Shown: positions 3,826 through 64,000, counted from the first letter of the stretch. The stretch: 64,000 bases of DNA from Candidatus Peregrinibacteria bacterium (GCA_020851415.1 JADZCU010000032.1:38379-102378), one strand, 5' to 3'. The notes: generated by a model not told the origin, from the sequence alone. Made by a program: numbers and translations.

Positions 3826-3827
3826 TA

Positions 3828-6268: not shown

Positions 6269-6345
6269 TGGTCGGGGTGAAAGGGCTCGAACCTTCGACC
6301 TCCTGGTCCCAAACCAGGCGCGCTAGCCAACTGCGCTACACCCCG
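6269..6345 (-). tRNA. tRNA-Pro (anticodon TGG), CCA encoded
   Basis: The reverse complement reads CGGGGTGTAGCGCAGTTGGCTAGCGCGCCTGGTTTGGGACCAGGAGGTCGAAGGTTCGAGCCCTTTCACCCCGACCA. It folds as a cloverleaf with anticodon loop TTTGGGA. Confidence 0.93.
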
Positions 6346-6461
6346 ATGTTTTTCTTTTTTATCTATTTTTCCAATTTTAAGACCCCTAACTTATAGACAA
6401 AAACCTCTCTAAAGTCAAACCCGCGTGTTTGCCTAACTTCGTGTTTCATGGCATTTTTCTT

Positions 6462-6998: not shown

Positions 6999-7006
6999 TC
7001 GAATCC

Positions 7007-8221
<1,215 letters not shown>

Positions 8222-8318
8222 GTATTAAAATCAACTTCTCACCATAGTGTCACCAAATCTCATTGAAGTCGCATTTACATATCAATAAGCTAAAATAGCA
8301 ATCAATAATAGAAGCCAA

Positions 8319-8909: not shown

Positions 8910-8920
8910 CGCGGAAAATT

Positions 8921-9439: not shown

Positions 9440-9485
9440 TTATTAAAGTACTCACTTTTTCATCGCACCGCACGAACAAAAATCC

Positions 9486-13053: not shown

Positions 13054-13124
13054 AAATAAAAGAGAGTCTACTTAGAGTGTACTCAGGATCGCTCAAAAAG
13101 CAAAAGTATGTTTAAATTAAAAAG

Positions 13125-14240: not shown

Positions 14241-14256
14241 CCACTAACCTCTCACT

Positions 14257-40786: not shown

Positions 40787-43495
40787 ATGAAACGTCAGAT
40801 CGCATCGTTTGCGCTCTTGAGCGTTCTGCTAAGTCTCAACGGCATTGCCATTGCAGCAGAAACCTCAACAACGACAACGACAGGTGTCTTCTCCGACGTT
40901 CCAAGAGAGTCTTTCAGTACAGACTCATTGGAATACCTAAAGGAGAACAATATTGTCAGCGGCTACCCCGATGGCACATTCAAACCCACGGCTGAAATCA
41001 ATCGCGCCGAATTCACAAAAATTATCGTTGGCGCATTAACGGACAGCCCAAAAGGTTCAAACTGTTTTTCTGACGTAAAAGATGAATGGTTTGCCCCTTA
41101 TGTATGTGAGGCAAAAGAACGAAAAATTATCGATGGTTACGCAGATGGAACCTTTAAACCTGCGGAAAACATCAATTTCTCAGAGGCATCAAAGATCGTT
41201 GCTAACGCTTTTGGTGTAACTCCAGATAACGGCGGCGACCCAAATGCGGAAAACTGGTATCAGCCGTTTGTAGTTGGTTTGGAAACCCAAAAAGCAATCC
41301 CACTCTCTGTAGATTTCTTTGACGAAAAAATCACTCGTGATGAAATGGCCGAGATGACATATCGTCTCAAAGCAAAAGTTACAGACAAAGGTTCACGCAG
41401 CTATAAAGAAATCGAAGGAGACAGTTTTGTCACCGTCGATTCCTGCAAACAACTTGAGGACCGTTATGAACACTACCTTTACAAGAGCGGTTCATACAAC
41501 ACCCCGGGAGACGTATATTACATGGAAGGAATGGGCGCCGGTGAACCGGCAGCAGCTCCAGCTCCAACCACTGACGCTACAAAATCTGCTGAAGAATCAT
41601 CAAGTTCAGGTTCAGCCGACTACTCAACAACCAACGTTCAGGTCGAAGGTGTAGATGAAGCAGACATTATCAAAAACGATGGAAAATACATCTATCTTAT
41701 CAAAGGAAATTCGGTTCGTATTATCGAAGCATACCCTGCTGACAACATGAAAGAATTGGTAAGTTTCCAGCTTGGTGACGCAGATGAAACTTTCTATCCA
41801 AGTGAAATGTATGTTGATGGGAACAAATTGGTAGTAGTTGGAAGCAAGAGCTTCTACTACACATACCCAATGGTAGAAGATACTTCAACGATGGACACAA
41901 AAATGATTTCACCTTCATACTACGGCAGTGGCAGAACAAAAGTTTTCATCGTAGATGTTACAGACCACAGCAAACCAACAGTGAAACGTTCAGTGGAGTT
42001 TGACGGTAACTACTCAACATCACGTAAAGTAGACGGAACACTCTACATGGTAATGAACAAATACCCATACTATCCTGTTATCTACAACGAGACGACAGGC
42101 GAATATGATCGCGACACAACTGGCTTCATCCCAATGATGAAAGATTCAAAAAACACAACTGAAGAGATTATCGTTCCATGTAATAAAGTAATGTTATTAC
42201 CAAAACCACAGAACTTTAATTTCCTCATTACCGCTGCAATCCCGGTAAACGACGAAACAAAAGATGTTTCCCGTGCAATGATTCTCGGTGACACACAAAA
42301 CGTGTATGCATCAAAAGAAAGCCTTTATGTAGCTGCAACAGACTGGGGTAACGGCTACTATCAGCCATACGGCTCATTTGGCACACAGGTCTACCGTTTC
42401 GCTTTGGGTGATGGAACCATCGAGTACGCAAGCAAAGGAAAAGTACCGGGCAACATCATCAATCAGTTCAGCATGGATGAATCAAACAAAACATTCCGCA
42501 TTGCTACAACAAAAAATGAATACGACCCGGACGATGAAATGAGCAACGGAGTATATGTTTTTGATCAATCAATGAAACAGCTTGGAAAAATTGAAGGCAT
42601 CGCTCCAGGCGAAAAAATCTACTCAACTCGTTTCATGGGTAACCGTCTGTACATGGTAACTTTCAAAACAGTAGATCCGCTTTTTGTTATCGATCTCTCC
42701 AACAGCGCCAGTCCAAAGATCCTTGGCAAGCTCAAGGTTCCTGGCTACTCAACATATCTCCACCCATACGACGAAACCCATTTAATCGGCTTTGGTAACG
42801 ACGTAGACGAAAGCATCGATGCAGACAAAGTTCACTCAGAGGACGCTATCTATTACACAGCGGTACTCGGTATGAAGATCGCCATGTTCGATGTAACGGA
42901 CGTCAATCATCCAAAAGAAATGTTCAAAGAAGTAATCGGTGACAGAGGTACAACAAGTGATGTTCTCTATAATCACAAAGCATTACTCTTCGACAAAGAA
43001 AAAGGCCTCATGGCATTCCCATTAACAGTTTATGAAATCGAAGATCCAAAAAACTGCAGCGAAAATACCTACTCAACATGTCAGGAAGGTTGCCAGAAAA
43101 TATGCGTACCAAAAACCTGTACATACGACAATGGAATCAAAGTTTGCAGCGCTGATTGTGATGGCGAAAACAGCTGCGTCCAGCAAGAATACACCTATGG
43201 CAAACCAACATTCCAGGGTGCTTACGTATACAACGTAGATCTCACAAACGGCTTCTCTCTCAAGGGTAAAGTAAGCCACTATACAGATGAAGAAACAGCC
43301 GAGGCAGTAACTCAAGGCTGGTTCAGTGACTACGAAAAAACCATCATGCGCGCTCTCTACATCGGTGAAAACTTATACACAGTTTCATCGGGCTATGTAA
43401 AAGCAAACGCCCTTTCCGATTTGGCTGAAAAAAGCATGTTGAAACTCGCAGACGCTACATACGATCTCGGTTACGACAAACCAATGCCTCTCTAA
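40787..43495 (+). CDS. SLH-domain surface protein fused to a secreted beta-propeller domain (PF09826-like)
   Basis: It has a signal peptide and two SLH repeats (GYPDGTFKPTAEINRAE, GYADGTFKPAENINFSE). TNVQVEGVDEADIIKNDGKYIYLI and VDPLFVIDLS..P follow, which are typical of the beta-propeller domain family. Confidence 0.8.
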   Translation: MKRQIASFALLSVLLSLNGIAIAAETSTTTTTGVFSDVPRESFSTDSLEYLKENNIVSGYPDGTFKPTAEINRAEFTKIIVGALTDSPKGSNCFSDVKDEWFAPYVCEAKERKIIDGYADGTFKPAENINFSEASKIVANAFGVTPDNGGDPNAENWYQPFVVGLETQKAIPLSVDFFDEKITRDEMAEMTYRLKAKVTDKGSRSYKEIEGDSFVTVDSCKQLEDRYEHYLYKSGSYNTPGDVYYMEGMGAGEPAAAPAPTTDATKSAEESSSSGSADYSTTNVQVEGVDEADIIKNDGKYIYLIKGNSVRIIEAYPADNMKELVSFQLGDADETFYPSEMYVDGNKLVVVGSKSFYYTYPMVEDTSTMDTKMISPSYYGSGRTKVFIVDVTDHSKPTVKRSVEFDGNYSTSRKVDGTLYMVMNKYPYYPVIYNETTGEYDRDTTGFIPMMKDSKNTTEEIIVPCNKVMLLPKPQNFNFLITAAIPVNDETKDVSRAMILGDTQNVYASKESLYVAATDWGNGYYQPYGSFGTQVYRFALGDGTIEYASKGKVPGNIINQFSMDESNKTFRIATTKNEYDPDDEMSNGVYVFDQSMKQLGKIEGIAPGEKIYSTRFMGNRLYMVTFKTVDPLFVIDLSNSASPKILGKLKVPGYSTYLHPYDETHLIGFGNDVDESIDADKVHSEDAIYYTAVLGMKIAMFDVTDVNHPKEMFKEVIGDRGTTSDVLYNHKALLFDKEKGLMAFPLTVYEIEDPKNCSENTYSTCQEGCQKICVPKTCTYDNGIKVCSADCDGENSCVQQEYTYGKPTFQGAYVYNVDLTNGFSLKGKVSHYTDEETAEAVTQGWFSDYEKTIMRALYIGENLYTVSSGYVKANALSDLAEKSMLKLADATYDLGYDKPMPL

Positions 43496-50741: not shown

Positions 50742-51365
50742 TTACTCTTCCTCTATTTCTTGGGCCAATTTAGCCAACCTCTTCTCATGATGAGCAATCT
50801 TTTTGTTATGAATAGGATCATCAATTTCTTGCACTTCCTTCAGGTATTTTTTAATTCTTTTCGTCAGCAAATCATAACTTGATTCATCAATTTTCCCACT
50901 CTTTAACTGATCTTCAATCAAATCTTCAATTCGATAAAGCTCCGCTTCGCAACGCTTGGATTTCCATTTAAATGAAGCAAAAGTGTCATCAATCTGGTTA
51001 ATAAATTTTGCTACAGATTTTTTCTTTTTCTGGCCGGCAAAAGTAAATCCAGTAACTGCAAAAAACACTCCAATCAAAGAAACCAGTAATGCCAGGAACT
51101 GAACCCAATATTCAGAAATAAAGCTCTGCACGCCACGTTGAGGTTTATCATCAATTCTTGTGGCACTAGCAAGTTTCTCCTTCAGAGCCTGCTTATCAAT
51201 AGTTGTTGAATCGGGGGAGTTTGCCAAAGCCATATATCTAAACGTTTTACCAGAATAATCTGACCCTTCAGTTGAGTTATTCTGAGCAAAACAAAAAGTT
51301 GAAAATCCAATGACTGAAATGGTCAACACAAAACCCAAAACGTGGCTAAATCGAGACTTTTTCAT
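50742..51365 (-). CDS. Hypothetical secreted/membrane protein
   Basis: It has a signal peptide, an internal TM segment (FLALLVSLIGVFFAVTGFTFAG) and a helical C-terminus. Confidence 0.45.
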   Translation of the reverse strand: MKKSRFSHVLGFVLTISVIGFSTFCFAQNNSTEGSDYSGKTFRYMALANSPDSTTIDKQALKEKLASATRIDDKPQRGVQSFISEYWVQFLALLVSLIGVFFAVTGFTFAGQKKKKSVAKFINQIDDTFASFKWKSKRCEAELYRIEDLIEDQLKSGKIDESSYDLLTKRIKKYLKEVQEIDDPIHNKKIAHHEKRLAKLAQEIEEE

Positions 51366-52877: not shown

Positions 52878-53507
52878 TCAATTGAGGTCTTTGGAATCAC
52901 TTCTTTTGCCAGCCGCTTTGATTCCTTTACCCAGCAGTGTCAGTAAATTGCTGTAAGCAATTCGACACTGTCTCATAAACCATTCACGGTCTTTTGTGCT
53001 GGAAAGATTCCTTGGGTCACTATACTCAACATCAAAAGTACAACCTCCCAGAGAGATATCCTTCTGAATTTCCTCAGGCATATAGGCAAAATAACGGCCA
53101 GGTGGCTCCGCCATATCTCCATAACCCAAAGTCAAAGCATTAATATAAGAAACCGAAAATAAACGGATGAATTTTTTAGATGCCAAAAAACTATCCCACT
53201 TACCTTCAGTCATTTGCTCATCTTTATTCTTGCCACCATAATCAAATGGTAACAAAGCGATACAGCACTTGGTATCTTGAGGCCATCGCATCTTAAAATC
53301 AGATGTTACAAGAGTATCCCAATCTATATTCGAAAGTGCTTCATTTGGAATCGCCTCACATTCAGCAGCATAATCATCAAGAGCCTGATCTTCTCCATGC
53401 ACTGCTGGTAACGGCTTCTTCATTCTGGAAGCGGCCACGGCCTGTGCACGTTCATTGTCAAAACGGTTCTGAAGACTGATAGCAATAATTGGTTCTCTTT
53501 CTGACAT
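52878..53507 (-). CDS. Partner protein 1 (209 aa) of the giant-kinase cassette; paralog of 58271-58921
   Basis: It begins 27 nt downstream of giant gene 1. It shares motifs with the other partner: TKCCIALLPF / GGTCCLTAIPT, GGCTFDVEYSDPRNL / KNCSFKVEGMRDLN, and the C-terminal IAYSNLLTLLG / KAFNALRSFFG. Confidence 0.6.
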   Translation of the reverse strand: MSEREPIIAISLQNRFDNERAQAVAASRMKKPLPAVHGEDQALDDYAAECEAIPNEALSNIDWDTLVTSDFKMRWPQDTKCCIALLPFDYGGKNKDEQMTEGKWDSFLASKKFIRLFSVSYINALTLGYGDMAEPPGRYFAYMPEEIQKDISLGGCTFDVEYSDPRNLSSTKDREWFMRQCRIAYSNLLTLLGKGIKAAGKRSDSKDLN

Positions 53508-53534
53508 ATAAATAGATTACAGTTTGATTATAAC

Positions 53535-56500
53535 TTAGTGTGAAACATGGACACCAGGGGACTCTGAGGCAGATTGGAATCTTTTCTTTATAGCATTAAG
53601 CTTTTCGATGGTTTCAGTAATAGTAATGGCGTCATGGGCATCCATGAGTCGAGTTGATAATGCATCAAGTTCGGCTATGGCGCTATCGATCACACCTTCA
53701 GAAATACCCCATTTTTTAGCCCATTCAGACTTATTTTCAGTCAGAGCTTTTCTATAACGCTGCAAAGAAACTCCAACCTGATTTTTATCTGCAAGAGCCA
53801 AAATTTCCTTTGGCATTTTAGGTACTGGTGTACCGGCAGCCTTTGCTTCCGCAACGACGCGTTTTGCCTGTGCAATCATTTCATTGATATGTTCAGCAGA
53901 AAAATAACTTGGTGTAATACCAATCTGTCTGGAATCGGAGATTGAACCAGTAGGTGACATACGTACAACAGCATAACTCTGTGAACGACCGTCGGCACCC
54001 TTTGGACCGGTTGGAATAACGCGAAGTTGAGATATTTCTTCAACGGAAGTAAGCGATAGATCACCCAGGAAGCCACCTTCAGTACCATGTGATTTACCAA
54101 CAAAAACGTTTTCCGGCTTATAATCCAGATGAATCCAGCCATTCTCATGCAGTCTATCAAGACCTTCAAGAGAATCCAAAAAATAGCTCAAAACAGAATG
54201 AGGATTTTCACCCGCATATAATCGACCTTTGAGCGATATATCTTTTCCCGGTGCGCCTTCGACCTTTTCAAAAATTATTACTGGAGAAGATCCTGGTTTA
54301 GAAACAAGGCGAGGTTTAATCAGGCCGGTACTGTCCGGGAAATCAATGACTGCCTGAAGTGCAGTACGTTCATTATCAAAAATTCTGCGAATCGAATCCA
54401 ATTCAAAATTCATACTGGCCATTCGTGATCTCAGTGATGTCTTCATCTCTTCAGTTAAACTCTTTGAGTGAAGCCATTCTTCGAGTTGACTTATCTCTTC
54501 AGCAATAACTTTAGCCTTCTTGTTGGTATCCTCAATATTAGCAAGTCTATCACGTGCATCAGTTAATTGATCCTGAATTTTTTTCGCCTCTGCCGTATTT
54601 GCCTTTGCCGTTTTGAGCTGTTCATCCAGTTTTCGGATCTGCATACGAAGATCGATCGCATTATCCATTTCAGCAAGTTTCGCTCGCTTCGCAGCAATCT
54701 TCCCCTGTAATCTTTCTATCTCTGCAGCACTCAGTTTTCCTTCATCCAGCATCTTGGCAATATCATGAATCTCCAATGACATTGCTTCAACATTTTTCGG
54801 ACGCTTCATGGCTGCTGTTTCTAAACGTGAGCCGTCACCTACTACATAGGCACAATCTGAAACAATTCCAAATCCACCTTCACCAAGTGTTTCACCGACA
54901 TAATAACGAACCTTATTACCCTTTGAATCTCGAACAAATTGGTACTCTTGTTTTAAAATTCGTTCAATGAGAGTTGCGTCAAGGTTCTCAAGACTTGAGT
55001 GCAATAATCGCAGCTCTTCGTCTGGTAATGCTTCAAGTAATCTGTAAAACTCATTTGGATTCATCTTCTTTGCCGCAGCCTGAAGTGGCTTACTGCCTGC
55101 GGCGGAAGTTTCAATTTTCGCTACCAGATTTCTTCTTTCAGGAGTTCTTGGCTTTGGAGAAAAATCAGGCTTCGCCTGCAAAGCAGCAGCTTCTTCCGCT
55201 TCGGAAAAACGCTCCTTCGATTTTCTTTCAGCATTCTCTTTACCAAGTTTACCTGCGGGTTTTGTTGAGCTGTCGTCAACAGACGATTTTGCTTTACCCT
55301 CTGACGGCTCTTCTTTTTTAGGCTTCGCTGGAGCTTCATCAGAAGTTTTCTTTTTGACAGGTTTTGATTCGGTGACAGTGGCTGAAGTAGTTTTTTCACC
55401 CTTTTTATCAGGTGCCACTTTTTTACCAGTATCAGCTTTTACAGGTTTTCCTATTTCTTTTGAATATTTTCTATGTAAATCCAGATATTCGGGATGTTCA
55501 CGTACAATTTTCTGAAACTCAGCCGGCTTACCGCGTGTCGCTTCGATTGCCTTATAAGCCTCTTCTGCAGTAACAACCTTTTTCGCATTTGCAGTTGCGG
55601 CACCCTCAACAACTTCAAGTTTTTTCCCACCTCTGGCGATTGTTAAAGCCAGGTTACCGGCTCCCTTCGCCAAAGTAGCGGGGAGTTTCACAACACCCAC
55701 AACCACGCCTGAAATATCTTTAATAAACACCTCAACAAAAGTACGGGCACCCAAAAGCGCAGCGCGGCCGGCACCCATGCCGCCGATCTTCACGGCTGCA
55801 ATAGAAGTCTTCACCGCTGTGGCTGTTGCACCTGCTCCACTTAAAGTAGCGACAACGTCAACCATCATTCTACCGATAATTTTACTGGTACTTTCCTTGT
55901 CCCATTTATCCTTTTGCAAAAGCGCATCAACAATCATGCCCGGATGATTGATCAAATGGCCAATGCCTTTTACTGCATCAATAGGATTACGCACCATCAT
56001 GCCAAGTCCTTGAATCAAATCTTTACATCCTTCCGTCACGCCGGCAAAAACCTCAATAATCGTCCCAAGCCCGCCACCACTAAACGTGTCCAAAATAGTA
56101 TCAACAAGATTATTACCGGTTGGATTTCCTATACTCAAATGTTTCGAAGCTTCACTCATCCAATCCCACGCCTCTTGCAAATGCATTTTGCCACCTATCC
56201 ATGTAAATCCGGAACCGATTGCATCCCAAGCCTTTACCCAGCCTTCACCCATGTAACCGACAATTTCAATTGCGGCACCCAAACCGGGTGCTTTTTTAGC
56301 CCAATCCCAGGTGGCACCCGCCTTCTTTGAAACCCAGCTGGAACCGGCTTCAACTCCTGGAATACCTCTCAAAGCAGCACCGGCAGTATCTATAAGCCCG
56401 GGACCTTTGATATCCATTTGTTTCAACATTTTCAAATAACTTTCAGCTTTCTTGATCAGCTCAAAGTTAGACGTATCAACCTCAAGAACAGCTCCTGAAA

Positions 56501-57947
56501 CTGATTCATCAAGCGAATCAATCATAGCCAACTCGGCTTTCTCACCTTCGTTGATAGTTTTAAGATTTTCATCAAGTTGGGTAATAGTTGCAGTTACAGA
56601 TTTGTCAGTTGCAATAATTTCAGTTTGAGCCCTTTTTGTGCGGGACGTATCTGCAATAAGCTTACTCAGCTGACCCTGCATTCCGGAAAGTGTGGAGTCC
56701 ATTTTTATTTGCTCGCCCGCAACACCTTGGCTACCCTCACGCAACTGGTGTGCCGCGTCACCTGCTTTCCGCTGCCCTTCTTCAATCTGCTGAACAACGT
56801 TCGCCGGTGCGGCATTTCCCTCCTGCTTTCTCTTTTCAACCTCACCCTTGGCCGCCGCCAGACCTTCTTCTGCTTTTTCGATCTCACCGGTTTTTTCTTC
56901 CATTTCCCGCTTACGCTCAGCGACCATTCGCATTTTGGAGACCATCACATCATACTGGTGTTGGATGTCCTGTCTGGCTTTTTCATTTTGAACAATACGA
57001 TCTTCCGCCTCCTTCTTTTTCTTATCATTTTCTGCCTTCTTTTTCTTCGCCAGACTCAGATTCTCTGTCACCTTATCGCGTGCCTCTTTATATTTTTTTT
57101 CAGTTTTAGCTTTTACTTTTTCAGGAGCGCCGTTTAAATCATCACCACGTTTTTGACGTTCCTTCTGTTTCTTTTTCATTTCAGTCAGCTTGGTCTGGAA
57201 ATCCTTGACGGCGTTTTCTTTAGCCTCCTTCGCCGCTTTAACTTCAGGGATATCTTCAGTCCACGGAGCCAAACTCACCAGATACTCACCAACAGCAGTT
57301 GCTCCGGTATTATGAGGTTTATTGGCGTCATCAACTTTTTGTTTTGCATCTCCAAATGTAACTGCGAGTTTTCCAAAATCTTCAGCTTCATTCTCAAAAT
57401 CCTTTTGATATTTCAAAAGTTCTGTATAAACACCATCGGCGGTTTCCATGTTCGCGGTATCGATTTTCGTCACATCTACGCCCTTCAACCGCTTCTGTGC
57501 TTCAGCCGCAGCTTCAGCATTTTCCTTGGTTTTTTCAGCCTCGGCTTTTTTCTCCTTTTTCAATTCAGCTAAACGATCCAGAATTTCACGAACCTTTTTC
57601 GTCAGTTCCTCCTTGAAGGTTTTGTATTCAGCTGCATCAATACCCGAATTGGAATCCTTGTCATATTTAGATATATTTCCATCTATCCATTGTCCAAAAT
57701 TTTTCTTCATCCGATCCTTAAAATCCTGTGGTAAAGAACGGAAATTATAGACCTTATAATCATCGAGCTCATAAATTGCATCCACCTCTTTTCTCGCTTC
57801 AGTTTTGCGGGCATCAATCTTTTCTTCATCAGGTACGGCAGACTCTTTCGGTGCCTTTTCTTTTGATTGTTCATTTTCAAAAACAAAACGTTTCGTTTTC
57901 AAAAGCGAATCATCAAAGAATTTAAATTGTGAGCATTTGATTACCAT
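53535..57947 (-). CDS. Giant protein 1 (1470 aa): coiled coil, Gly/Ala/Trp-rich hydrophobic core, Lys/Pro-rich linker, C-terminal Ser/Thr-kinase-like domain
   Basis: A 4.4-kb uninterrupted ORF. Kinase motifs are the G-loop GETLGEGGFGIV (54867-54884), AAMK, HLDYKPEN (54108-54131), LGDLS and TPSYFSAE. The N-terminal ~450 aa are Lys/Glu-rich heptads. Confidence 0.8.
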   Translation of the reverse strand: MVIKCSQFKFFDDSLLKTKRFVFENEQSKEKAPKESAVPDEEKIDARKTEARKEVDAIYELDDYKVYNFRSLPQDFKDRMKKNFGQWIDGNISKYDKDSNSGIDAAEYKTFKEELTKKVREILDRLAELKKEKKAEAEKTKENAEAAAEAQKRLKGVDVTKIDTANMETADGVYTELLKYQKDFENEAEDFGKLAVTFGDAKQKVDDANKPHNTGATAVGEYLVSLAPWTEDIPEVKAAKEAKENAVKDFQTKLTEMKKKQKERQKRGDDLNGAPEKVKAKTEKKYKEARDKVTENLSLAKKKKAENDKKKKEAEDRIVQNEKARQDIQHQYDVMVSKMRMVAERKREMEEKTGEIEKAEEGLAAAKGEVEKRKQEGNAAPANVVQQIEEGQRKAGDAAHQLREGSQGVAGEQIKMDSTLSGMQGQLSKLIADTSRTKRAQTEIIATDKSVTATITQLDENLKTINEGEKAELAMIDSLDESVSGAVLEVDTSNFELIKKAESYLKMLKQMDIKGPGLIDTAGAALRGIPGVEAGSSWVSKKAGATWDWAKKAPGLGAAIEIVGYMGEGWVKAWDAIGSGFTWIGGKMHLQEAWDWMSEASKHLSIGNPTGNNLVDTILDTFSGGGLGTIIEVFAGVTEGCKDLIQGLGMMVRNPIDAVKGIGHLINHPGMIVDALLQKDKWDKESTSKIIGRMMVDVVATLSGAGATATAVKTSIAAVKIGGMGAGRAALLGARTFVEVFIKDISGVVVGVVKLPATLAKGAGNLALTIARGGKKLEVVEGAATANAKKVVTAEEAYKAIEATRGKPAEFQKIVREHPEYLDLHRKYSKEIGKPVKADTGKKVAPDKKGEKTTSATVTESKPVKKKTSDEAPAKPKKEEPSEGKAKSSVDDSSTKPAGKLGKENAERKSKERFSEAEEAAALQAKPDFSPKPRTPERRNLVAKIETSAAGSKPLQAAAKKMNPNEFYRLLEALPDEELRLLHSSLENLDATLIERILKQEYQFVRDSKGNKVRYYVGETLGEGGFGIVSDCAYVVGDGSRLETAAMKRPKNVEAMSLEIHDIAKMLDEGKLSAAEIERLQGKIAAKRAKLAEMDNAIDLRMQIRKLDEQLKTAKANTAEAKKIQDQLTDARDRLANIEDTNKKAKVIAEEISQLEEWLHSKSLTEEMKTSLRSRMASMNFELDSIRRIFDNERTALQAVIDFPDSTGLIKPRLVSKPGSSPVIIFEKVEGAPGKDISLKGRLYAGENPHSVLSYFLDSLEGLDRLHENGWIHLDYKPENVFVGKSHGTEGGFLGDLSLTSVEEISQLRVIPTGPKGADGRSQSYAVVRMSPTGSISDSRQIGITPSYFSAEHINEMIAQAKRVVAEAKAAGTPVPKMPKEILALADKNQVGVSLQRYRKALTENKSEWAKKWGISEGVIDSAIAELDALSTRLMDAHDAITITETIEKLNAIKKRFQSASESPGVHVSH

Positions 57948-58264
57948 TCTTCCATGCCTTTAAGAATATCTTCCGCCTGTTCTGTTTTTCTTTGTTTATT
58001 TTCGGTCTCCTTTTGATATTTTTTAATCTCATCCTTTTTAAACTGTTTCACACGGCCTACAAAAGTCTCATCATAAGTAACAATCTTATCAATGAGCTTA
58101 TCCTGCTTTTTTTCCGCACGACCAAAGAGGGACGCCAACACTCGATAATCATGATCATCAAGCTTATCAAAAGACTCCAACAGTTCTTTCTTTACGTTTT
58201 CTTCAAGAAAAATACTGTGTTGGATCTCTTTTTTGAGTTTTTGTTTTGATTTTTGTGTATGCAT
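57941..58264 (-). CDS. Small helical protein (107 aa) translationally coupled to giant gene 1
   Basis: Its stop codon overlaps the giant-1 start in ATGGTAA (7-nt overlap). The composition is Lys/Glu-rich and helical. Confidence 0.55.
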   Translation of the reverse strand: MHTQKSKQKLKKEIQHSIFLEENVKKELLESFDKLDDHDYRVLASLFGRAEKKQDKLIDKIVTYDETFVGRVKQFKKDEIKKYQKETENKQRKTEQAEDILKGMEEW

Positions 58265-58270
58265 ATATTT

Positions 58271-58921
58271 TTATGTGATCGCCCTGTCTGCTTTTTCCTC
58301 ATCGGATTCGCTAAGTTCCACCTCGGTTATCTCGGACAGTCCAAAAAAAGAACGTAAAGCATTGAAAGCTTTTGTATATTGAGTAATAAAAGTTCCCATT
58401 GTATTCAAATCACGCATACCTTCAACTTTAAAAGAACAATTTTTTCTGATGAAGTCCGGCAACAATTCAAAGTATGGAGCTGCGGTCGATGCAAAATCAT
58501 AAGTCTTACCATCAACACCACTCTTATAAAAAACCTTCATGTATTCGCCTTTATGGATCTCTTCCGACTTCAATGTGTGCCCCAGTGGGCTGGTAGGGAT
58601 TGCAGTAAGACAGCAGGTACCGCCATCGGGGTATAGCTGAACAATATCGCTCCAGTTACGGACAATATATCTACGTGCGTTTTTGAGCATCTGTGCATTC
58701 AGCAATCCTTTGCCATATCTTTTCAAGTCCTCTGGCGACATTTTTTTCGCAGCTAAACTCAATTCCTCCTTTATATATGAACAAGCATCACGATAATCGC
58801 TTTCATCAATAGATTTGACATTCTCGGGAGCAGGCATCGGATTACTATTCGTCAAATCTTCAAATCGTTTACCGACTTGCTTCAGTGGTGGATTTAAAAT
58901 TTTGTCAAAATCATCTGTCAT
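58271..58921 (-). CDS. Partner protein 2 (216 aa) of the giant-kinase cassette; paralog of 52878-53507
   Basis: It begins 19 nt downstream of giant gene 2. The motifs it shares with partner 1 are listed under that feature. Confidence 0.6.
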   Translation of the reverse strand: MTDDFDKILNPPLKQVGKRFEDLTNSNPMPAPENVKSIDESDYRDACSYIKEELSLAAKKMSPEDLKRYGKGLLNAQMLKNARRYIVRNWSDIVQLYPDGGTCCLTAIPTSPLGHTLKSEEIHKGEYMKVFYKSGVDGKTYDFASTAAPYFELLPDFIRKNCSFKVEGMRDLNTMGTFITQYTKAFNALRSFFGLSEITEVELSESDEEKADRAIT

Positions 58922-58940
58922 ATACTTGTAAGGATAAATA

Positions 58941-61900
58941 TTATTGAATGTAAGGTTTCATATCGCGTGCTGCATCAGCTGGAGTATAAGTGAAGTTATT
59001 GGGATCTTTCAATTTATTTACAATTTCCATAAGTTTTGCCTTTGCTACGGGGTCAGCTGGAGAGCGATCAATACCATAATCCATGGGCACTGAGCTGGTA
59101 GGGTCATATTTGTGATCTGGAGCGGCTTTTGGCATATGTATTTTTCCCGTTACTATGGCCTCAAGTTGAACTCCCAACGCATAGGCATCTATTTTCCACG
59201 CGTACTGCGGGCCCTTTGCAATGACTGCATCTGTAACTGCACCAGAATAGAACATCGGCGATACTTGAGACGGAACGCGACCTAAATAGACAGGTTCTGT
59301 ACTGCCATTAAAAGTATATCCCGGTATATGTCCACTCAACCCCTGAAAAAACGCATCATTCGGTGTGACAGTTCCAAAGTCACCTAATCTACCACCATTA
59401 TCCGTTGGAAATATTTGTGATGATTTAAAGTCACCATGAATCAAGCCATTTCTATGGAGGAAAGAAAGTCCAATTGCCCCATCATGAAGACCATGAAGTA
59501 ATCTACTCAATGGCACATTCGGATCATCCCCCAAAGCATCATAATCACCGGATTTTTTCTTGCCGTCAGCGCCAGTATAGTCAACAAGTTCATAAAGTAT
59601 AGATTTTCCATCCGGGCTAATCGCAATAGGTTTTACAAAAACATTATCAGCGCCATTCGCTTTTTCCTTCTGTACAACATCGACTACATATCCAGCTCCA
59701 ACAGCCTCTGATCCCAGTGTTATGCCTTGTGCGGCAGCATCAGGTTTCACCACTTTCATACCTGCAAATCGAACCTCTTTTGTCACAGGATCAATGAGCG
59801 CTACTCGGTAAAAGGCACCAATACCACCTTCTCCGGCGCTCTTCGACATGTCCGGATAGTACTCATAACTGACACCATTAATATCAATTTTTTCAGATTT
59901 GCCCGAAGCCATTCGATCCACCATGTCCTTGTTCATATATGGTGAATTAATATTTTTCCCCAAAAACTCAAACATCGGAGCAGATATTTGATTGGTAGCC
60001 ATGACTTTTTCCACAATATCCTGAGTGATGTTTTGTGAATCCAAACTACGCTCCAGGAATTTTTGTTTTTCAGGTGAGATACTGGCACTAAAAGTACTCG
60101 GAGAATTTAAGATAATATCAACATAATTTTCCAAATGACCGTTAACGTCACGACTCAACAACTTCATAAGTTTAGGGTCGGGATGATTTAATATTGTATC
60201 AACATCTTGAGAGTCACTTGCAAATCTTTTCAGCACTTCAACTTTATCAGGAGTAAGCAAATGAGCATTCTTGATGAGCTTCTGTTTCATAGCCGGAGGT
60301 CCGCCAAGGCCTGATATCATATCCAGAGCACGCTGTTGATCTTTTGTTGCCTGGAATTTTTCCATCAAATCAAAATAGCTCTTATACTTTTGATAAATTG
60401 GATGTTTGCCCACAATTTGGACTGCATCGGCAAATTCACCTCTGCCTAAAGCAGCAAATAACCTATCACGTAAGGCTTCAAAAGCCTGTCTGTCCTTAGG
60501 ATCAACTTTGTATACTGCATCCTGCAACTGTTTACCAATTGCCAGACTGGCCGCCTCAACAACTGCTGAACGGTCATATAACTGCTTCGCAACATGATAT
60601 TCTGACAATAGCTGATATGCTTTATCTCCAAGAATCTTACGAATTTCAGCATTGTTCCCCTGTAAATCAGGGCGTTGCTTCATTAAGAATGTATAATCGG
60701 CATAAGCCTGTTGATGTGCCGAACTATCCAAAGCTGGATCGCGCACATGGAAAGCATCCGCAGTTGAACGTACCAGGTCTTCGGGACTTGTAAATTTCAA
60801 TTTCATAGTGTCCACTTGAGCCACCTTATCAAAAGTAAACCCAGGTATATCTGCCGAAATAGAAGTTTCGAGCAGTATCCTGGTGATTGGTGCTAATCCC
60901 TGGACACGCCCATCTGCAATTTCAGCCATAAACTCTTCCGCATTTCGTGGCGTTAATTCTTGTCCTCGTCTGGCAAAAAGTTCAGAAAGTTGTGGATCTG
61001 CCTGAACAAGTTTTACAAGTTTTTCGCCAATCTTTGCCGCACCAATAACACGATGTGCTCGTTCGTGTTTACCTTCTGTTTTCATCTCGGCAAGAATCTC
61101 TTTTCCCTGTGGATGAGATTTAAAGAACTCTTTGGCACTCATCTCAACTCCATCTACCACAAATACATTCACAGGTTTTCCATCTTTACCCTCAACTTGT
61201 TTCATCTCAACACCATATTTAGCTTCAAAATATTCGCTGTTGTAATGAATTTTTCCCTCCTTATCAATCCAAGCTGGAACATCTTTAGACTCTTTTTTCT
61301 TTCCATCAACGCCTTCTTCACCAAGCATTTCTTCAGGAATACCCTTCGAGAAAACAGAATAAAAATGTGTTTCTGCCGCAGTTTTTTCCATGTACTGCAA
61401 TTTACCGTTTTTATCTATAATAAGAACGCCTCTTCCCTCACCAAGTACTGCAACAATCTGAGGTTCACCTTCTGCTACAGGTTTATTATTTGCATTGTAT
61501 TTATCAACATACTCGGCAATTTCAGCCGGAGTATTCAGCTTTTTGCCCGCAACTGCGCTTCCAACTTCACCGGCAATCAACAAAACCACAGCATCACGCG
61601 GAGTATTAACTGAGTTGGCCTGTTTTTCAATAATTCCAAAAAGCTCAGCATGTTGAGGATATCGGCTTCTAAGTGAAGCAAGCTCCGTAGCATCATGCCC
61701 CAAAAGCGCGGTCGTATATTTTTCAAATATACCCAAAGTTTCAACATCAATTTTAACACCACCCGGAGATCGGTAAGGTCCCTTGTCTGCACCTTCTGAT
61801 CCGCCAAGAGAACCCAGAATAGCTTCAGCAATCTTTAATTGTGCAACCAAATTTGGATCAATTTTTCCCTCTTTTTGTTGTTCGGCAATCTTTGCCTCAA

Positions 61901-64000
61901 GGTCTGTTTTTCGTTTTTCAATATTTGATTTATGAGCTTCACCTTCAACTTTTTCGGCTTCCGCCACTTTGACTTCAGCACCTTCAGCCGCCTTCTTTTT
62001 TGCAACAAGATCAGCCTCAAGTTTTTCCGTAGGTAAGCCCTCGGCTTTTGCTTTATTGAGTTTTGACTGAGCTATATCAATCTCTACCTTTGCTTTTGAA
62101 TATTTCCCAATAGCTTCAGCCGTACTGATTTCTTCGACCATTTTCTTTTCTGTAGGCCCTTCATGAGCGCCATGCCCCATGAATGAGTGAACTCCACCAA
62201 CCGTTGCAGAGAATAAGAAATTTTCTCCAAAAGATTTCATGGCTTCCTTGCCAGTAAAATGTCGTCCGGATAGGAATGCCATTCCTGCATCCAGACCAAC
62301 CATGGCTCCGCCTTCAAGTGAAGTTTTTCCAAGCCACCATGCGGCATCCTTTGCCATAGCTCCCATACCACCTTCAATAAACGAAGGAGCTTTGCCAGCT
62401 TCGGCTAAGTTTCTCAATTTTCCAACACCAGTACCAACACCCTTCAAAATACCCATAGTAGCAACACTATGTCCCATGGCTTTCCAGTATTCTGCACTGA
62501 AACGCTCATAACCATTGCCCATTAACATGTTATTAAATTCATATTGAGCAGCTGAGAAAGCCGCACCTTCAACCGCAGCACCGCCGGCCCACGCGAGTGC
62601 GCGTCCACTACCAGTCGCCAAGACACGTCCAATAATAGCTTCACCAAGCACTGCACGAGCCGCCATACCTGTTCCGGCAACAGCAGCGGATCCAACGCCG
62701 GCTGATGCAATAGTCACAGCCGTAAACACACCGACTTTCACCGGTAATGCGTTCCATTCTTCATCAGTCCAGAATGCCGTTAACACACCTCCCTGACCAA
62801 AATTTTCTATGGCTACTGTGCCGCCATATACTTTTCTCCATTCTTCGGCTTCAGGTCCGCTGGCACCTTCCAACATGCTATATGTGGAAAGCTTCACTTC
62901 TTTGTTGTATGCCTCTGAGACCACCATATTTTGCATTTTCCCTCGGGCTTCCTGTATCTCCGCATCTTCCGCATCTCTGCCCCATTGTTTTTTGTACTCT
63001 TCTTTCCATTTCGTTATTCCCTCTTCCAACCTCTTTTTCACATCTCCATTATTTAATGTTTTTTCCCGTACTTTTGCCTTATCAACAAGTTTGGCTCCCT
63101 CTTGTAACTGCTTGGCAAAGTACGATTCATACAGTTGCCTTGAAAGACCAGTGAGCCCACGATCACGAGCTTTTTGAGCCTCTTCAAGAGTCGCCTGTTT
63201 GCGTTTTTCCGGATCAGCGTCGTTTAGTTTGCGCTGTTGCACAAACATATCAAACACTTCCCAGGAATTGGAGTTCATATCCACCGGGAATCCCAGTTTC
63301 CAGGATTTTAACGCGCGATCCAATTTCGCTTTTTTGAGCTCGCGTTCCGCTGGTACAAGTTGTGCTTGTCGTTCATCTTCCAGTGACATTCCTTCAACCT
63401 TTGTCACTTTTTCTCTCTGTAATTTTAACTGCTCTTTCCTTTTTTCTATGTACTCAGTTGTAATTGGCTGTCCATCGAGCGTGGCCTGAATTTCTCCGGA
63501 TTCCAGTTGTTGAATAGACCTTTCCAGACGGGTAACCTCATCTTTCTCACGCTTAATGCGTTCCTCTTTTCCTTTCTGCAATTCATCGTTTCCCTTTTCT
63601 TTAATTCCGGCCACTTTTTCATCCATGGCCTGAACGCTTTGAACACTGTTTGGTGGAAACTCAAATTTGCGCAGCAGTGCTTCCGCTCCCTCAATCGTGA
63701 CACATTTCCCTGATTCAATCATCTCTTCAGCCGCGTCAATCACGCGCGCCATATTTTCAATATTGTCGTATGCCTGATCGTATGTATGCGTCCCAAAATC
63801 TGTTTTCTCTCCAGGGATAATTTTATTATTATATCGTTCCTTAATGGACGCTTTCATCGCCGCCAATCTCTGTACCATTTGCGACAGTTCCATCTTGGCA
63901 ATTTGCTTCAGCATCTCTTTGGCCTGCTCAAACCGCACCGGATCCCGTTCAGCATTTTTGGCTTCTTGATTGTAATATGAAAGCAGATCTTCTTTCGCTC
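58941..64000 (-). CDS. Giant protein 2 (more than 1685 aa, 5' end beyond the window): coiled coil, Gly/Ala-rich hydrophobic core, helical middle region, C-terminal kinase-like domain
   Basis: The frame stays open from 63938 up to the window edge at 64000. Kinase motifs are the G-loop GEGGIGAFY (59814-59837), AGMKVV, HGDFKSSQ (59415-59438) and GDFG (59373-59384). Confidence 0.8.
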   Translation of the reverse strand, partial: AKEDLLSYYNQEAKNAERDPVRFEQAKEMLKQIAKMELSQMVQRLAAMKASIKERYNNKIIPGEKTDFGTHTYDQAYDNIENMARVIDAAEEMIESGKCVTIEGAEALLRKFEFPPNSVQSVQAMDEKVAGIKEKGNDELQKGKEERIKREKDEVTRLERSIQQLESGEIQATLDGQPITTEYIEKRKEQLKLQREKVTKVEGMSLEDERQAQLVPAERELKKAKLDRALKSWKLGFPVDMNSNSWEVFDMFVQQRKLNDADPEKRKQATLEEAQKARDRGLTGLSRQLYESYFAKQLQEGAKLVDKAKVREKTLNNGDVKKRLEEGITKWKEEYKKQWGRDAEDAEIQEARGKMQNMVVSEAYNKEVKLSTYSMLEGASGPEAEEWRKVYGGTVAIENFGQGGVLTAFWTDEEWNALPVKVGVFTAVTIASAGVGSAAVAGTGMAARAVLGEAIIGRVLATGSGRALAWAGGAAVEGAAFSAAQYEFNNMLMGNGYERFSAEYWKAMGHSVATMGILKGVGTGVGKLRNLAEAGKAPSFIEGGMGAMAKDAAWWLGKTSLEGGAMVGLDAGMAFLSGRHFTGKEAMKSFGENFLFSATVGGVHSFMGHGAHEGPTEKKMVEEISTAEAIGKYSKAKVEIDIAQSKLNKAKAEGLPTEKLEADLVAKKKAAEGAEVKVAEAEKVEGEAHKSNIEKRKTDLEAKIAEQQKEGKIDPNLVAQLKIAEAILGSLGGSEGADKGPYRSPGGVKIDVETLGIFEKYTTALLGHDATELASLRSRYPQHAELFGIIEKQANSVNTPRDAVVLLIAGEVGSAVAGKKLNTPAEIAEYVDKYNANNKPVAEGEPQIVAVLGEGRGVLIIDKNGKLQYMEKTAAETHFYSVFSKGIPEEMLGEEGVDGKKKESKDVPAWIDKEGKIHYNSEYFEAKYGVEMKQVEGKDGKPVNVFVVDGVEMSAKEFFKSHPQGKEILAEMKTEGKHERAHRVIGAAKIGEKLVKLVQADPQLSELFARRGQELTPRNAEEFMAEIADGRVQGLAPITRILLETSISADIPGFTFDKVAQVDTMKLKFTSPEDLVRSTADAFHVRDPALDSSAHQQAYADYTFLMKQRPDLQGNNAEIRKILGDKAYQLLSEYHVAKQLYDRSAVVEAASLAIGKQLQDAVYKVDPKDRQAFEALRDRLFAALGRGEFADAVQIVGKHPIYQKYKSYFDLMEKFQATKDQQRALDMISGLGGPPAMKQKLIKNAHLLTPDKVEVLKRFASDSQDVDTILNHPDPKLMKLLSRDVNGHLENYVDIILNSPSTFSASISPEKQKFLERSLDSQNITQDIVEKVMATNQISAPMFEFLGKNINSPYMNKDMVDRMASGKSEKIDINGVSYEYYPDMSKSAGEGGIGAFYRVALIDPVTKEVRFAGMKVVKPDAAAQGITLGSEAVGAGYVVDVVQKEKANGADNVFVKPIAISPDGKSILYELVDYTGADGKKKSGDYDALGDDPNVPLSRLLHGLHDGAIGLSFLHRNGLIHGDFKSSQIFPTDNGGRLGDFGTVTPNDAFFQGLSGHIPGYTFNGSTEPVYLGRVPSQVSPMFYSGAVTDAVIAKGPQYAWKIDAYALGVQLEAIVTGKIHMPKAAPDHKYDPTSSVPMDYGIDRSPADPVAKAKLMEIVNKLKDPNNFTYTPADAARDMKPYIQ

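Follow-up and report, generated by a model that had tools for sequence, protein, structure and literature searches.

The 64,000-nt stretch of "Candidatus Peregrinibacteria" DNA analyzed here (the window) carries two tandem triads of a lineage-specific gene module, the second copy being cut by the window edge. The repeat unit is a triad of genes encoding a small protein of about 105 aa, a giant protein, and a partner protein of about 200 aa. Our analysis establishes the anatomy of this module, the homology of its C-terminal domains to kinases, the paralogy of its partners, a strict kinase-partner linkage, domain swapping among relatives, and a mosaic divergence at odds with the genome backbone. 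It is quite possible, if somewhat short of probable, that this is a polymorphic effector locus in which the kinase is the payload and each partner is cognate to its own kinase.

Organization of the triads and genomic setting

The module comprises the following genes in the window.

52878..53507, (-), partner 1, 209 aa (ORF call)
53535..57947, (-), giant 1, 1470 aa (ORF call), with a conserved carrier and, after it, a variable kinase tail
57941..58264, (-), small helical protein 1, 107 aa (ORF call), first gene of triad 1
58271..58921, (-), partner 2, 216 aa (ORF call), a paralogue of partner 1
58941..64000, (-), giant 2, C-terminal 1685 of 2096 aa inside the window

A previous sequence-only reading described five minus-strand genes with gaps of 27, -7, 6, and 19 nt, each giant gene being followed directly by a partner gene of about 210 aa; the gaps proved exact when the ORFs were rechecked, and the gene order is true of both giants. 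The small helical protein, which had been taken for an odd fifth gene, is actually the opening gene of each module. The giant 2 ORF is still open at base 64000; its full product (P0014) has 2096 aa, so that 411 N-terminal residues and the upstream small gene fall beyond the window.

The small protein is translationally coupled to the giant (the small protein 1 gene overlaps the start of giant 1 by 7 nt in ORF coordinates) and coevolves with its front half, small-protein identity tracking carrier identity across loci with a rho of 0.96. It matches no Pfam family (the giants and 11 small proteins were searched) and no PDB entry. We infer that it is a chaperone or adaptor.

In all relatives, the locus occupies one fixed chromosomal position, beside nusA/recX/recA and not on a mobile element. 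A neighboring PilB-like ATPase is part of the conserved synteny and carries an MshEN domain, which is of a c-di-GMP-binding type. The nearest named genome, L003, has the same recA-recX-nusA context but lacks the cassette. A phage tape-measure/tail module was considered because of the chaperone-giant-200-aa gene order and was rejected, since PHROGs gave no tail match, no relative was found on viral contigs, and the flanking genes are housekeeping genes.

Both giant proteins end in divergent kinase domains

53538..54995, (-), Hanks-type kinase domain of giant 1, aa 985-1470 (Pfam Pkinase, E 5e-4; A4 profile; motifs)
58944..59864, (-), kinase-like domain of giant 2, P0014 aa 1790-2096 (Pfam Pkinase, E 6e-4; hhalign; motifs)

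The full set of protein kinase motifs that had been noted at both C termini was recovered in the translations. Those of giant 1 follow in canonical order: GEGGFG (1022), AAMK (1045-1048), an alphaC NE (1193), HLDYKPEN (1273), LGDLS (1294), and TPSYFS (1345, extended TPSYFSAE). A coiled-coil-like insert of about 135 aa (54393-54794) separates the beta3 Lys from the alphaC Glu, and a variable helical tail belongs to the same domain. Giant 2 has GEGGIG (1800), AGMK, HGDFKSSQ (1932), and LGDFG (1949) in P0014 numbering, the catalytic-loop Asn being replaced by Gln. We found 13 homologues of giant 1, aligned as A1, of which 12 bear a kinase; most of these keep the motifs, and the columns of the catalytic Lys, Glu, Asp, and GD are conserved throughout the alignment. 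In some orthologues, the catalytic loop has degenerated (HGDFNGRQ, NTDVKPDN, and QVDTKIEQ).

Against Pfam PF00069 (Pkinase), the giants score 20.0 and 19.7 bits, below the gathering threshold of 31.7 bits, and in both the match is confined to the catalytic-loop region (E about 5e-4). The A4 kinase profile retrieved 1537 PDB matches at E<=1 (best E, 5e-8). The best 60 of these are all protein kinases, with the catalytic loop and G-loop aligned, and the top match is twitchin kinase. The two kinase domains also match each other by hhalign (98.6% probability, E 8e-16). Judged from profiles and motifs, both C termini are thus divergent members of the Hanks-type (eukaryotic-like) kinase superfamily that the curated Pfam model misses; an assignment that had been put forward as refutable was returned as kinase by the profile searches.

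Two other candidates were rejected. A HipBA-type toxin-antitoxin does not fit, as the kinase matches the Hanks type and not HipA and there is no DNA-binding antitoxin. For a known anti-phage system, PADLOC gives weak catalytic-loop matches only (E 2e-5 to 7e-2); those to mad6 (2e-5) and PD-T4-6 cover just the generic catalytic loop. Among the partners and the small protein, the sole PADLOC match is a weak one of partner 2 to Drt4 (E 0.027).

The carriers are alike in composition and show no detectable homology

57048..57947, (-), N-terminal conserved domain of giant 1, aa 1-300 (invariant columns in A1)
57627-57662, (-), EF-hand-like loop DKDSNSGIDAAE in that domain (A1, invariant)
55578..56510, (-), Gly/Ala/Trp-rich, weakly hydrophobic domain of giant 1, aa 480-790 (alignment A1, composition, hydropathy)
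54996..55550, (-), Lys/Glu/Pro-rich variable linker of giant 1, aa 800-984 (A1 and comparison with L084)
62172..62834, (-), Gly/Ala-rich region of giant 2, P0014 aa 800-1020 (alignment, composition), non-homologous to the giant 1 region
60732..61304, (-), conserved domain of giant 2 with HExxHR (alignments of giant-2-type proteins)

One architecture had been proposed for both giants. The compositional likeness stands: the N-terminal parts contain 13 to 17% K and 12 to 14% E, and the supposedly hydrophobic regions contain 16 to 18% G, 12 to 17% A, and 3% W. The two carriers are not equivalent, however, as hhalign finds homology in the kinase domain only and none between the N-terminal or the Gly/Ala-rich regions. 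Likewise, the description of the latter as Gly/Ala/Trp-rich and hydrophobic is correct as to composition, but by Kyte-Doolittle they are barely hydrophobic (maximum 19-residue means of 1.65 and 1.74).

In giant 1, the Gly/Ala/Trp-rich domain is the best-conserved part, with 64 to 84% identity among orthologues and motifs such as AWDWM and GWVKAWD. Its AF2 model is all-helical with a pLDDT of 35. The carrier has Trp-rich motifs of the interfacial type, and its transmembrane scores are marginal; since the carrier model is of low confidence (pLDDT 35), it is composition that points to membrane activity. The N-terminal domain of giant 1 gave only subthreshold matches to EF-hand proteins. In the comparison with the close relative L084, similarity begins to collapse at the Lys/Glu/Pro-rich linker.

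In giant 2, the Gly/Ala-rich region includes one plausible transmembrane segment (62694-62750). The HExxHR (61053-61067) and a downstream Glu (within 60906-60938) are both invariant in giant-2-type proteins and make up a candidate zincin-like peptidase motif. The surrounding domain has no match in Pfam or the PDB, to a peptidase family or structure, and giant 1 lacks an HExxH-type motif.

In keeping with the earlier impression that neither carriers nor partners belong to a known family, which profile and structure searches upheld, the kinase is the only component of the module that the profile libraries assign. No known trafficking, secretion, or pretoxin domain was detected outside the kinase in Pfam, NCBIfam, PHROGs, or PADLOC. 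The N termini of the giants, including full-length giant 2, lack a hydrophobic signal segment, and our gene survey of the window found no secretion-system genes, both in agreement with the first reading.

Partners form a family linked to this kinase type

The partners of the two triads are 25% identical in a pairwise comparison (E 2e-7), and profile-profile comparison (99.6% probability, E 6e-24) bore out the suggestion that they are paralogues. The family comprises about 110 clusters at 50% identity, with members of about 200 aa. Conserved residues are C50, C82, C156, P87, P144, F158, and T126; a GLTxGF motif carries the conserved Thr/Ser. The AF2 model of the partner is confident (pLDDT 92.5), and that of partner 1 matches no PDB or BFVD (viral) structure. 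Pfam and structure searches revealed no helix-turn-helix and no known fold, and Pfam gave no match to PP2C or another known phosphatase.

In every context examined, the partner gene lies directly after a kinase of the giant type; this holds for both copies in the window and for L093, L094, and L096. L092 offers a further case, in which the kinase is a stand-alone protein of 584 aa that lacks a carrier. The pairing seen in the window is therefore conserved elsewhere, in every related locus surveyed.

Domain swapping and mosaic divergence in related loci

The triad is conserved in L001, L084, L085, L086, and L087 and, judging from a gene table without DNA, on the P0007 contig. Related loci contain one to three triads: one in L083, apparently one in L091 (whose contig holds only the start of the giant), and three in L093, while the P0020 contig seems to hold the beginning of a third.

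Swapping of the C-terminal domain, as would be looked for in a polymorphic system, occurs in relatives, and the downstream gene changes along with the domain. In L083, a GGDEF domain (Pfam, 1.6e-12) replaces the kinase on a giant-1-type carrier and is followed by an unrelated gene of 158 aa. A 1547-aa protein of L092 has a giant-1-type carrier with a non-kinase C terminus, followed by an unrelated gene of 131 aa. The protein L093_gA is a mosaic of a giant-1-like Gly/Trp domain with the HExxH domain and kinase of the giant 2 type.

Between close relatives, the blocks made up of kinase and partner have diverged much further than the carriers, and how similar they are does not follow the genome backbone. 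Identity to L084 is 98% for RecA, 96% for NusA, 89% for the small protein, and 83% for the carrier, but drops to 46% for kinase 1, 39% for partner 1, and 23% for partner 2. At the nucleotide level, identity to L084 is 84 to 91% for nusA and recA, about 67 to 83% for the carrier and small-protein regions, and mostly 40 to 60% over 61900-58300 and 55300-52900. In the more distant L086 (RecA, 90%), kinase 1 is 77% and partner 1 is 65% identical. Kinase identity exceeds 60% in only two locus pairs, the same two that alone have a partner identity above 60%. Such mosaic divergence is a comparative signature of polymorphic toxin/immunity loci and supports that assignment.

Possible functions of the module

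The effector-immunity grammar proposed at the outset is thus retained in part: pairing is conserved, C-terminal domains are swapped, and divergence is mosaic, but no known trafficking domain, signal peptide, or secretion system was found with the genes. If the locus is an effector system, the small helical protein of about 105 aa would act as chaperone or adaptor of the giant. The carrier, consisting of a helical Lys/Glu-rich N-terminal part, the Gly/Ala/Trp-rich weakly hydrophobic domain, and the variable linker, would carry the enzyme at its C terminus up to a membrane or through it; in the type 2 giant, the conserved HExxH domain stands between the linker and the exchangeable enzyme. The payload would be a Hanks-type Ser/Thr-like kinase here and a diguanylate cyclase or another kind of domain in relatives. 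Finally, the partner may bind its own kinase, as an immunity/inhibitor protein or a dedicated regulator. Membrane activity and export are thus putative for the carrier, as are chaperoning by the small protein and inhibition or immunity conferred by the partner.

Several observations speak against this reading. Loci of polymorphic toxins tend to be mobile or dispersed, but the chromosomal slot occupied here is fixed; kinase and GGDEF domains typify signaling outputs and are not usual as toxins; and the catalytic loop of some orthologues is degenerate. In addition, the conserved Cys and Thr of the partner could mean that it is itself an enzyme, or else a substrate, and not a passive inhibitor. 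A serious rival, though a somewhat less likely one, is that the triads instead encode a resident membrane-associated signaling scaffold, with a Gly/Ala-rich anchor, N-terminal sensing (possibly of Ca2+ via the EF-hand-like loop), an exchangeable kinase or diguanylate cyclase as its output within the producer cell, and a partner dedicated to it as a substrate, an activator, or a regulator of the phosphatase kind. Replacement of a kinase by GGDEF is typical of signal transduction proteins, and the fixed position with conserved synteny, the MshEN domain next door, the invariance of the EF-hand-like loop, the missing secretion signal, and the partner's three Cys and GLTxGF Thr/Ser all suit a scaffold. 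Rapid divergence would then insulate paralogous kinase-partner pairs from cross talk, as two to three pairs per genome would need. However, backbone-incongruent kinases and partners that are 23 to 46% identical at a RecA identity of 98% are unusual for housekeeping signaling. A scaffold is also hard to reconcile with a copy number of one to three and a nearest named relative without the cassette, with Gly/Ala/Trp regions unlike classical transmembrane helices, with the lack of a recognized sensor domain, and with a kinase-partner pair that exists without any scaffold.

Two other explanations are less likely still. The tight linkage and fast evolution of the kinase and its small cognate gene, the variable copy number, and the weak kinase-loop matches to the defense kinases mad6 and PD-T4-6 might indicate an intracellular conflict module (toxin-antitoxin-like or anti-phage/abortive infection), with a self-directed kinase toxin checked by the partner and the putatively coiled-coil part of the giant as sensor or scaffold. 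We consider this improbable, given that the PADLOC matches represent the generic loop without a system-level match, phage or viral relatives are absent, the kinase is not HipA-like and lacks a DNA-binding antitoxin, and the size and conserved Gly/Trp domain have no precedent in toxin-antitoxin or defense kinases. Giant membrane proteins have been reported in Vampirococcus, and CPR relatives are rich in such proteins, which are thought to mediate host attachment (PMC8080830). By that analogy, the giants could serve an episymbiont as structural proteins of its surface or in attachment, with the kinase-like domain as a degenerate binding module and the partner as an accessory structural subunit. 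The degenerate loops of some copies and the fast diversification common in surface molecules would fit, but the catalytic residues are complete in most copies, an ATP-dependent kinase or GGDEF cyclase has no obvious extracellular role, and signal peptide, sortase motif, SLH domain, and adhesin repeats are all lacking, which makes this explanation very improbable.

An extension of the effector hypothesis, unlikely but worth stating, is that the triads form an unrecognized, self-contained delivery system of Peribacteria-like CPR episymbionts. The chaperoned carrier would use its Trp/Gly-rich domain to enter a host bacterium's membrane, unaided by any known secretion machine, and deliver a host-reprogramming Hanks kinase or diguanylate cyclase, which the novel-fold partner would silence in the producer.

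Comparison with known systems

Members of the twitchin/titin family likewise are very long structural proteins with a kinase embedded close to the end; however, only the generic catalytic core is matched and Ig or Fn3 repeats are absent here, so that the resemblance is an analogy and not membership. PknB/PrkC-type receptor kinases with PP2C are comparable in that a Hanks-type kinase is joined to a region associated, here putatively, with the membrane and that a small cognate gene shares the operon. Their kinase is N-terminal, whereas that of the giants is C-terminal; moreover, sensor domains such as PASTA are missing from the giants, the partner is neither a PP2C nor another known phosphatase, and the divergence rate is extreme.

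The effector kinases YpkA/YopO, LegK, and NleH/OspG resemble the giants in that a eukaryotic-like kinase ends a larger protein of a host-dependent bacterium. They are substrates of T3SS or T4SS machines, which are absent here, and a downstream family of cognate partners is not known for them. CPR bacteria, moreover, probably have other prokaryotes as hosts.

T7SSb LXG toxins have small helical Lap/WXG100 partners and downstream immunity genes. The gene order is identical here (first a gene for a helical protein of about 100 aa, next one for a large protein whose N terminus is helical and whose C-terminal enzyme varies, and last a small cognate gene), and the organisms are inferred to be Gram-positive-like. 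In contrast, the window lacks an EssC or FtsK-type ATPase, the carriers are five to ten times longer, and Pfam searches of the giants and 11 small proteins gave no LXG or WXG100 match at E<=1, nor was there a PDB match. We know of no LXG protein with a Gly/Ala/Trp-rich domain like that of the carriers.

Polymorphic toxin systems, in which kinase toxin domains and pretoxin metallopeptidases are documented (Zhang, Aravind et al. 2012, PMC3482391), differ from the triads in several respects. The module contains no T5SS/CdiA, RHS, T6SS PAAR/VgrG, T7SS LXG/WXG, PVC, or Sec/lipobox component; its payloads are Hanks kinases and GGDEF domains instead of nucleases, deaminases, or pore formers; and its locus is fixed beside nusA, with a putative immunity role for the partner. 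The similarities are that a conserved N-terminal carrier bears a C-terminal enzyme exchanged between close relatives (PMC3482391), that the gene directly downstream changes with the C-terminal domain, and that one relative has a stand-alone cassette of C-terminal domain plus partner; the HExxH domain ahead of the payload in giant-2-type proteins would be a further one if it serves in processing. Taken at the level of sequence, these similarities support a polymorphic, effector/immunity-like grammar for the kinase/partner triad.

Organization and distribution of the cassette

Open reading frame (ORF) calling recovered five minus-strand genes at the positions reported in the sequence-only reading, with the same spacing of 27, -7, 6, and 19 nt.

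52878-53507, minus strand, partner 1
53535-57947, minus strand, giant 1 (1470 aa)
57941-58264, minus strand, small helical protein 1
58271-58921, minus strand, partner 2
58941 to the window end, minus strand, giant 2

The frame of giant 2 is still open at base 64000, and its full product, matched in the database at 100% identity (P0014), has 2096 aa; the window thus lacks the first 411 residues and anything before them. On related contigs, the genes occur in the order small protein (105-120 aa), giant 2, partner 2, small protein (~105 aa), giant 1, partner 1, and nusA, the last being convergent with the cassette. Because these contigs show a small protein-giant-partner order, the small gene of the window, previously taken as an odd fifth gene, is instead the first gene of triad 1. 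Its end overlaps the start of giant 1 by 7 nt (ATGGTAA). The small proteins of triads 1 and 2 are weakly related (hhalign, 60.6%, E 8e-5), and both are linked through an intermediate sequence, with scores of 88.6% and 81.0%. The number of triads varies among related loci: L083 has a single triad, as apparently does L091, where the giant is only partly on the contig (start only), while L093 has three, and a third appears to begin on the contig of P0020. The L085 contig starts inside giant 2. Within the window, no further copies of the cassette were found, and promoter and terminator scans gave results no better than shuffled sequence.

Both giant families look rare in the data covered. A word-index search of 5.8 billion clusters, with capped candidate numbers, identified at least 13 relatives of giant 1 and at least 8 of giant 2, and JGI metagenome contigs contained five related loci, three of them cut by contig ends. 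No relatives of the giant families were found in viral contigs, nor were any found by pattern scans of species-representative genomes. The nearest RecA among the latter genomes belongs to a "Candidatus Peribacteria" metagenome-assembled genome (74%), followed by those of Saccharibacteria and other Patescibacteria; the "Ca. Peribacteria" genome has the same recA-recX-nusA arrangement and no cassette. Judged by RecA as the one marker, the window probably derives from a Peregrinibacteria-like CPR bacterium. Full-text literature searches with in-text checks returned no description of this module, and no component save the kinase core matches a described family.

Kinase domains

The protein-kinase motifs listed in the sequence-only reading are all legible in the translations of both giants, and profile searches bear out its assignment of the C-termini as kinase domains. 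A profile of ten giant-1 C-termini matched 1537 PDB sequences at E<=1; the best 60 of these 1537 are all protein kinases, led by twitchin (5e-8), and the alignment is colinear through the Gly-rich loop and the alphaE/catalytic-loop/DFG segment. Scores of the giants against Pfam Pkinase (~20 bits) are below the gathering score of 31.7. All 13 aligned giant-1-type sequences have the catalytic Asp, and none of the 12 kinase-bearing giant-1 homologues lacks the beta3 Lys, the alphaC Glu, or the LGDL Asp; the catalytic-loop Lys and Asn are kept save in two sequences with HGDFNGRQ. Giant-2-type catalytic loops are more varied (HGDFKSSQ in the window; VHRDIKPEN, NTDVKPDN, and QVDTKIEQ elsewhere). Judging from these alignments, most kinase copies appear fit for catalysis; some could be pseudokinases. 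In the N-lobe of the giant 1 kinase, a Lys/Glu-rich helical insert of coiled-coil composition (aa 1052-1185; window 54393-54794) separates the beta3 Lys from the alphaC Glu and ranges from 0 to about 135 aa across orthologues; in Hanks kinases, large insertions at this site are unusual.

Carriers and internal domains

The proposal that both giants share one architecture holds for the kinase domains, which are homologous (hhalign, 98.6%, E 8e-16), but no signal links the N-terminal or the Gly/Ala-rich regions. Homology of the two carriers was rejected, hhalign being negative for every region pair except the kinases. The Gly/Ala/Trp richness of the regions described as hydrophobic is real (G, 16-18%; A, 12-17%; W, 3%), whereas their hydrophobicity is marginal (highest Kyte-Doolittle 19-residue means, 1.65 for giant 1 and 1.74 for giant 2). 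An AlphaFold2 model of giant 1 aa 470-800, built from 13 sequences, reached a pLDDT of 35 and was kept out of the fold search. Because structure prediction of the carrier failed, we infer from composition that this conserved Trp-rich, Gly/Ala-rich domain would lend itself more to associating with membranes conditionally than to anchoring the protein permanently across them.

Giant 2 contains an HExxHR motif (window 61053-61067; P0014 aa 1389-1393) followed ~43 residues on by a Glu (within 60906-60938; aa 1432-1442). Both are invariant in 7/7 aligned giant-2-type sequences and are placed between carrier and kinase, and this region could be a zincin-like self-processing peptidase. As a known metallopeptidase it was rejected: neither a profile search against the PDB nor Pfam scans of the 7 members returned a peptidase, the matches that came up being weak FliG-like and designed-protein ones. 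In giant 1, a 12-residue loop, DKDSNSGIDAAE (aa 96-107; window 57627-57662), fits the EF-hand Ca2+-binding pattern, with D1, D3, G7, I8, and E12 invariant across 13 homologues. Assignment to the EF-hand family was rejected, as matches to the EF-hand proteins calbindin, calmodulin, and polycystin-2 are subthreshold (E 0.2-0.6); the resemblance is at the motif level only. A further N-terminal motif, [KR]R-x-[VA]-[FY]-F/x-E, lies at about aa 18-26 of giant 1 (window ~57870-57896) and recurs at locus L092 both in a carrier with another C-terminus (3321-7964) and in a stand-alone 584-aa kinase (599-2353). It may be a targeting signal or a relic of internal carrier deletion.

The partner family

The two partners had been called paralogous, and profile comparison confirms it (hhalign, 99.6%, E 6e-24). 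No named family was found for them in Pfam, NCBIfam, PHROGs, or PADLOC. When 1.84 billion representatives were searched exhaustively with a profile, 110 clusters were obtained at E<=1e-3, with members nearly all 170-240 aa long. Conserved positions include Cys 50, 82, and 156, Pro 87 and 144, Phe158, and the Thr/Ser in a GLTxGF motif. The AlphaFold2 model (111 sequences) is an alpha/beta domain predicted with a pLDDT of 92.5 and a pTM of 0.86. Foldseek searches with it found nothing in the PDB (best E 1.4, TM 0.15) or in BFVD (best E 0.55), and the sequence profile had no match in the PDB. The predicted fold is therefore unmatched among solved structures (PDB) and viral models (BFVD).

C-terminal swaps and divergence of the kinase-partner block

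In every context examined, a partner gene directly follows this kinase type, so that the pairing noted in the window is conserved in related genomes. Besides the two pairs of the window, it occurs at L093, L094, L096, and L092. The partner at L094 is distant (E 3e-8) and again adjoins nusA, that at L096 matches at E 3e-5, and at L092 the 584-aa kinase, which has no carrier, is followed by a partner homologue (99.9%).

A survey for C-terminal domain swapping, as the sequence-only reading had advised, found swaps at L083 and L092, with the downstream gene differing too. At L083, the C-terminus behind a giant-1-type carrier is a GGDEF domain (Pfam, 1.6e-12) with a GGEEF motif, and the 158-aa gene downstream is unrelated to the partners. 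At L092, a 1547-aa protein has N-terminal (94.5%) and Gly/Trp (96.3%) domains of the giant-1 type joined to a nonkinase C-terminus that has no match in Pfam or the PDB; an unrelated 131-aa gene is next downstream. At L093, the giant L093_gA fuses a giant-1-like Gly/Trp domain to a giant-2-type HExxH domain and kinase.

A separate observation concerns an ATPase of the PilB type (T2SSE) that carries an MshEN domain and is encoded upstream of the cassette on the opposite strand (at L083, ATPase 7308-9518 and giant 10001-14860). It is directly upstream in L083, L084, and L086 and a few genes off in L001 and the P0007 contig. The L083 giant ends in a diguanylate cyclase of the GGEEF type, and a c-di-GMP link to pilus control would be conceivable.

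Divergence from the window is mosaic in two related loci.

Amino acid identity to the window
Locus: RecA, NusA, small protein 1, carrier 1; kinase 1, partner 1, partner 2
L084: 98%, 96%, 89%, 83%; 46%, 39%, 23%
L086: 90%, 94%, 73%, 72%; 77%, 65%, 48%

At the nucleotide level, L084 is 84-91% identical over nusA and recA and about 67-83% where the carriers and small proteins are encoded. Identity is mostly 40-60% over window positions 61900-58300 (C-terminal half of giant 2 and partner 2) and 55300-52900 (giant 1 linker, kinase, and partner 1). It jumps back to 83% at the small gene and, in nusA, to about 85%. L086 has a more distant backbone, yet it is closer in both variable blocks (60-76% nucleotide identity). 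Kinase identity exceeds 60% in two of 15 locus pairs, and the same two alone have a partner identity above 60%. Because the L084 and L086 identities are incongruent with the backbone and because kinase and partner identities covary, these comparisons argue that the kinase-plus-partner block evolves, or is exchanged, as a unit independent of carrier and genome. The identity of the small protein follows that of the carrier (rho 0.96), which suggests that it functionally belongs with the carrier.

Genomic surroundings

The flanking housekeeping genes of the window encode NusA, RecX, RecA, a YmdB-like phosphoesterase, a CtpB-like protease, ArgS, class I LysRS, DnaB, and GuaA. The argS ORF (32771-35326, plus strand) has about 260 residues ahead of the model start, which may be a true N-terminal extension or an artefact of first-start-codon choice. 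Between recX and nusA, an ORF (50742-51365, minus strand) encodes 207 aa that start like a signal peptide, include one transmembrane segment, and end in a charged helical tail; when it was tested as an orphaned cassette member (partner, small protein, or kinase), it proved unrelated to the cassette. This slot holds differently sized genes in each relative, and nucleotide identity to L084 dips there.

Two SLH-domain proteins (109-2274 and 17015-18343, both plus strand) suggest that this CPR-like organism has an S-layer attached to polymers of its cell wall. A 902-aa protein (40787-43495, plus strand) weakly matches a NEAT-domain leucine-rich-repeat protein family, and a 541-aa protein (30957-32582, minus strand) weakly matches MXYO-CTERM-like and exoglucanase-like families; both may belong to the large surface proteins as well. 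Almost all 2-kb bins of window 1-64000 have a negative GC skew (cumulative, -5.0), whatever the gene strand. A single replichore therefore probably spans the window, with the plus strand on the lagging-strand template side.

Possible function and comparison with known systems

The locus resembles polymorphic effector-like loci; scans of Pfam, NCBIfam, PHROGs, and PADLOC recognized no trafficking domain in it. In the reading that we tentatively favor, since its parts fit polymorphic toxin grammar, the conserved carrier, recombining C-terminal enzyme, and cognate downstream gene would form a polymorphic effector module. The small protein would act in a chaperone-like manner, the partner would serve as an inhibitor or immunity-like protein for the kinase, and the HExxH domain of giant 2 could be a processing domain before the kinase. 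The main rival, which we regard as only somewhat less likely, is a signaling scaffold resident in the producer, whose output domain can be exchanged and whose partner is its dedicated substrate or regulator. The replacement of kinase by GGDEF, the unchanging chromosomal slot, the invariant EF-hand-like loop (with its subthreshold EF-hand matches), the Thr and Cys residues conserved in the partner, and the failure to find an export signal on the giants are all in keeping with a scaffold, whereas the extreme and incongruent divergence and the variable copy number speak against it. Membership tests for defense systems and toxin-antitoxin systems failed, and both assignments were rejected, as was a phage or tape-measure (phage-tail) origin, for which the test failed and no viral-contig relative exists among those searched; the membership test for an adhesin failed too.

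A large part of bacterial diversity falls within the CPR (Patescibacteria), whose members are believed to live on other cells; to our knowledge, almost nothing is known of the molecules that they use on their hosts. The locus offers a concrete, testable candidate for such a host-directed molecule, a modular giant whose tip and partner are exchanged between near-identical genomes, a pattern that is a signature of genes in conflict or of host specificity. It also defines three protein families to which no relatives are known (that of the small protein, the carriers with their two types, and the ~110-cluster partner family), and the Hanks-type kinase is here a swappable cassette. Were the signaling scaffold true, the unusual kinase-partner pairing would stand, and its rapid diversification would need explanation.

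Under the favored reading of an effector module, the likeness to polymorphic toxin/effector systems lies in a shared grammar of conserved carrier, recombining C-terminal enzyme, and cognate downstream gene, as set out in a polymorphic toxin survey (PMC3482391). The same survey lists, among the domains of such systems, a toxin domain of the kinase type as well as processing domains that are metallopeptidases (PMC3482391).
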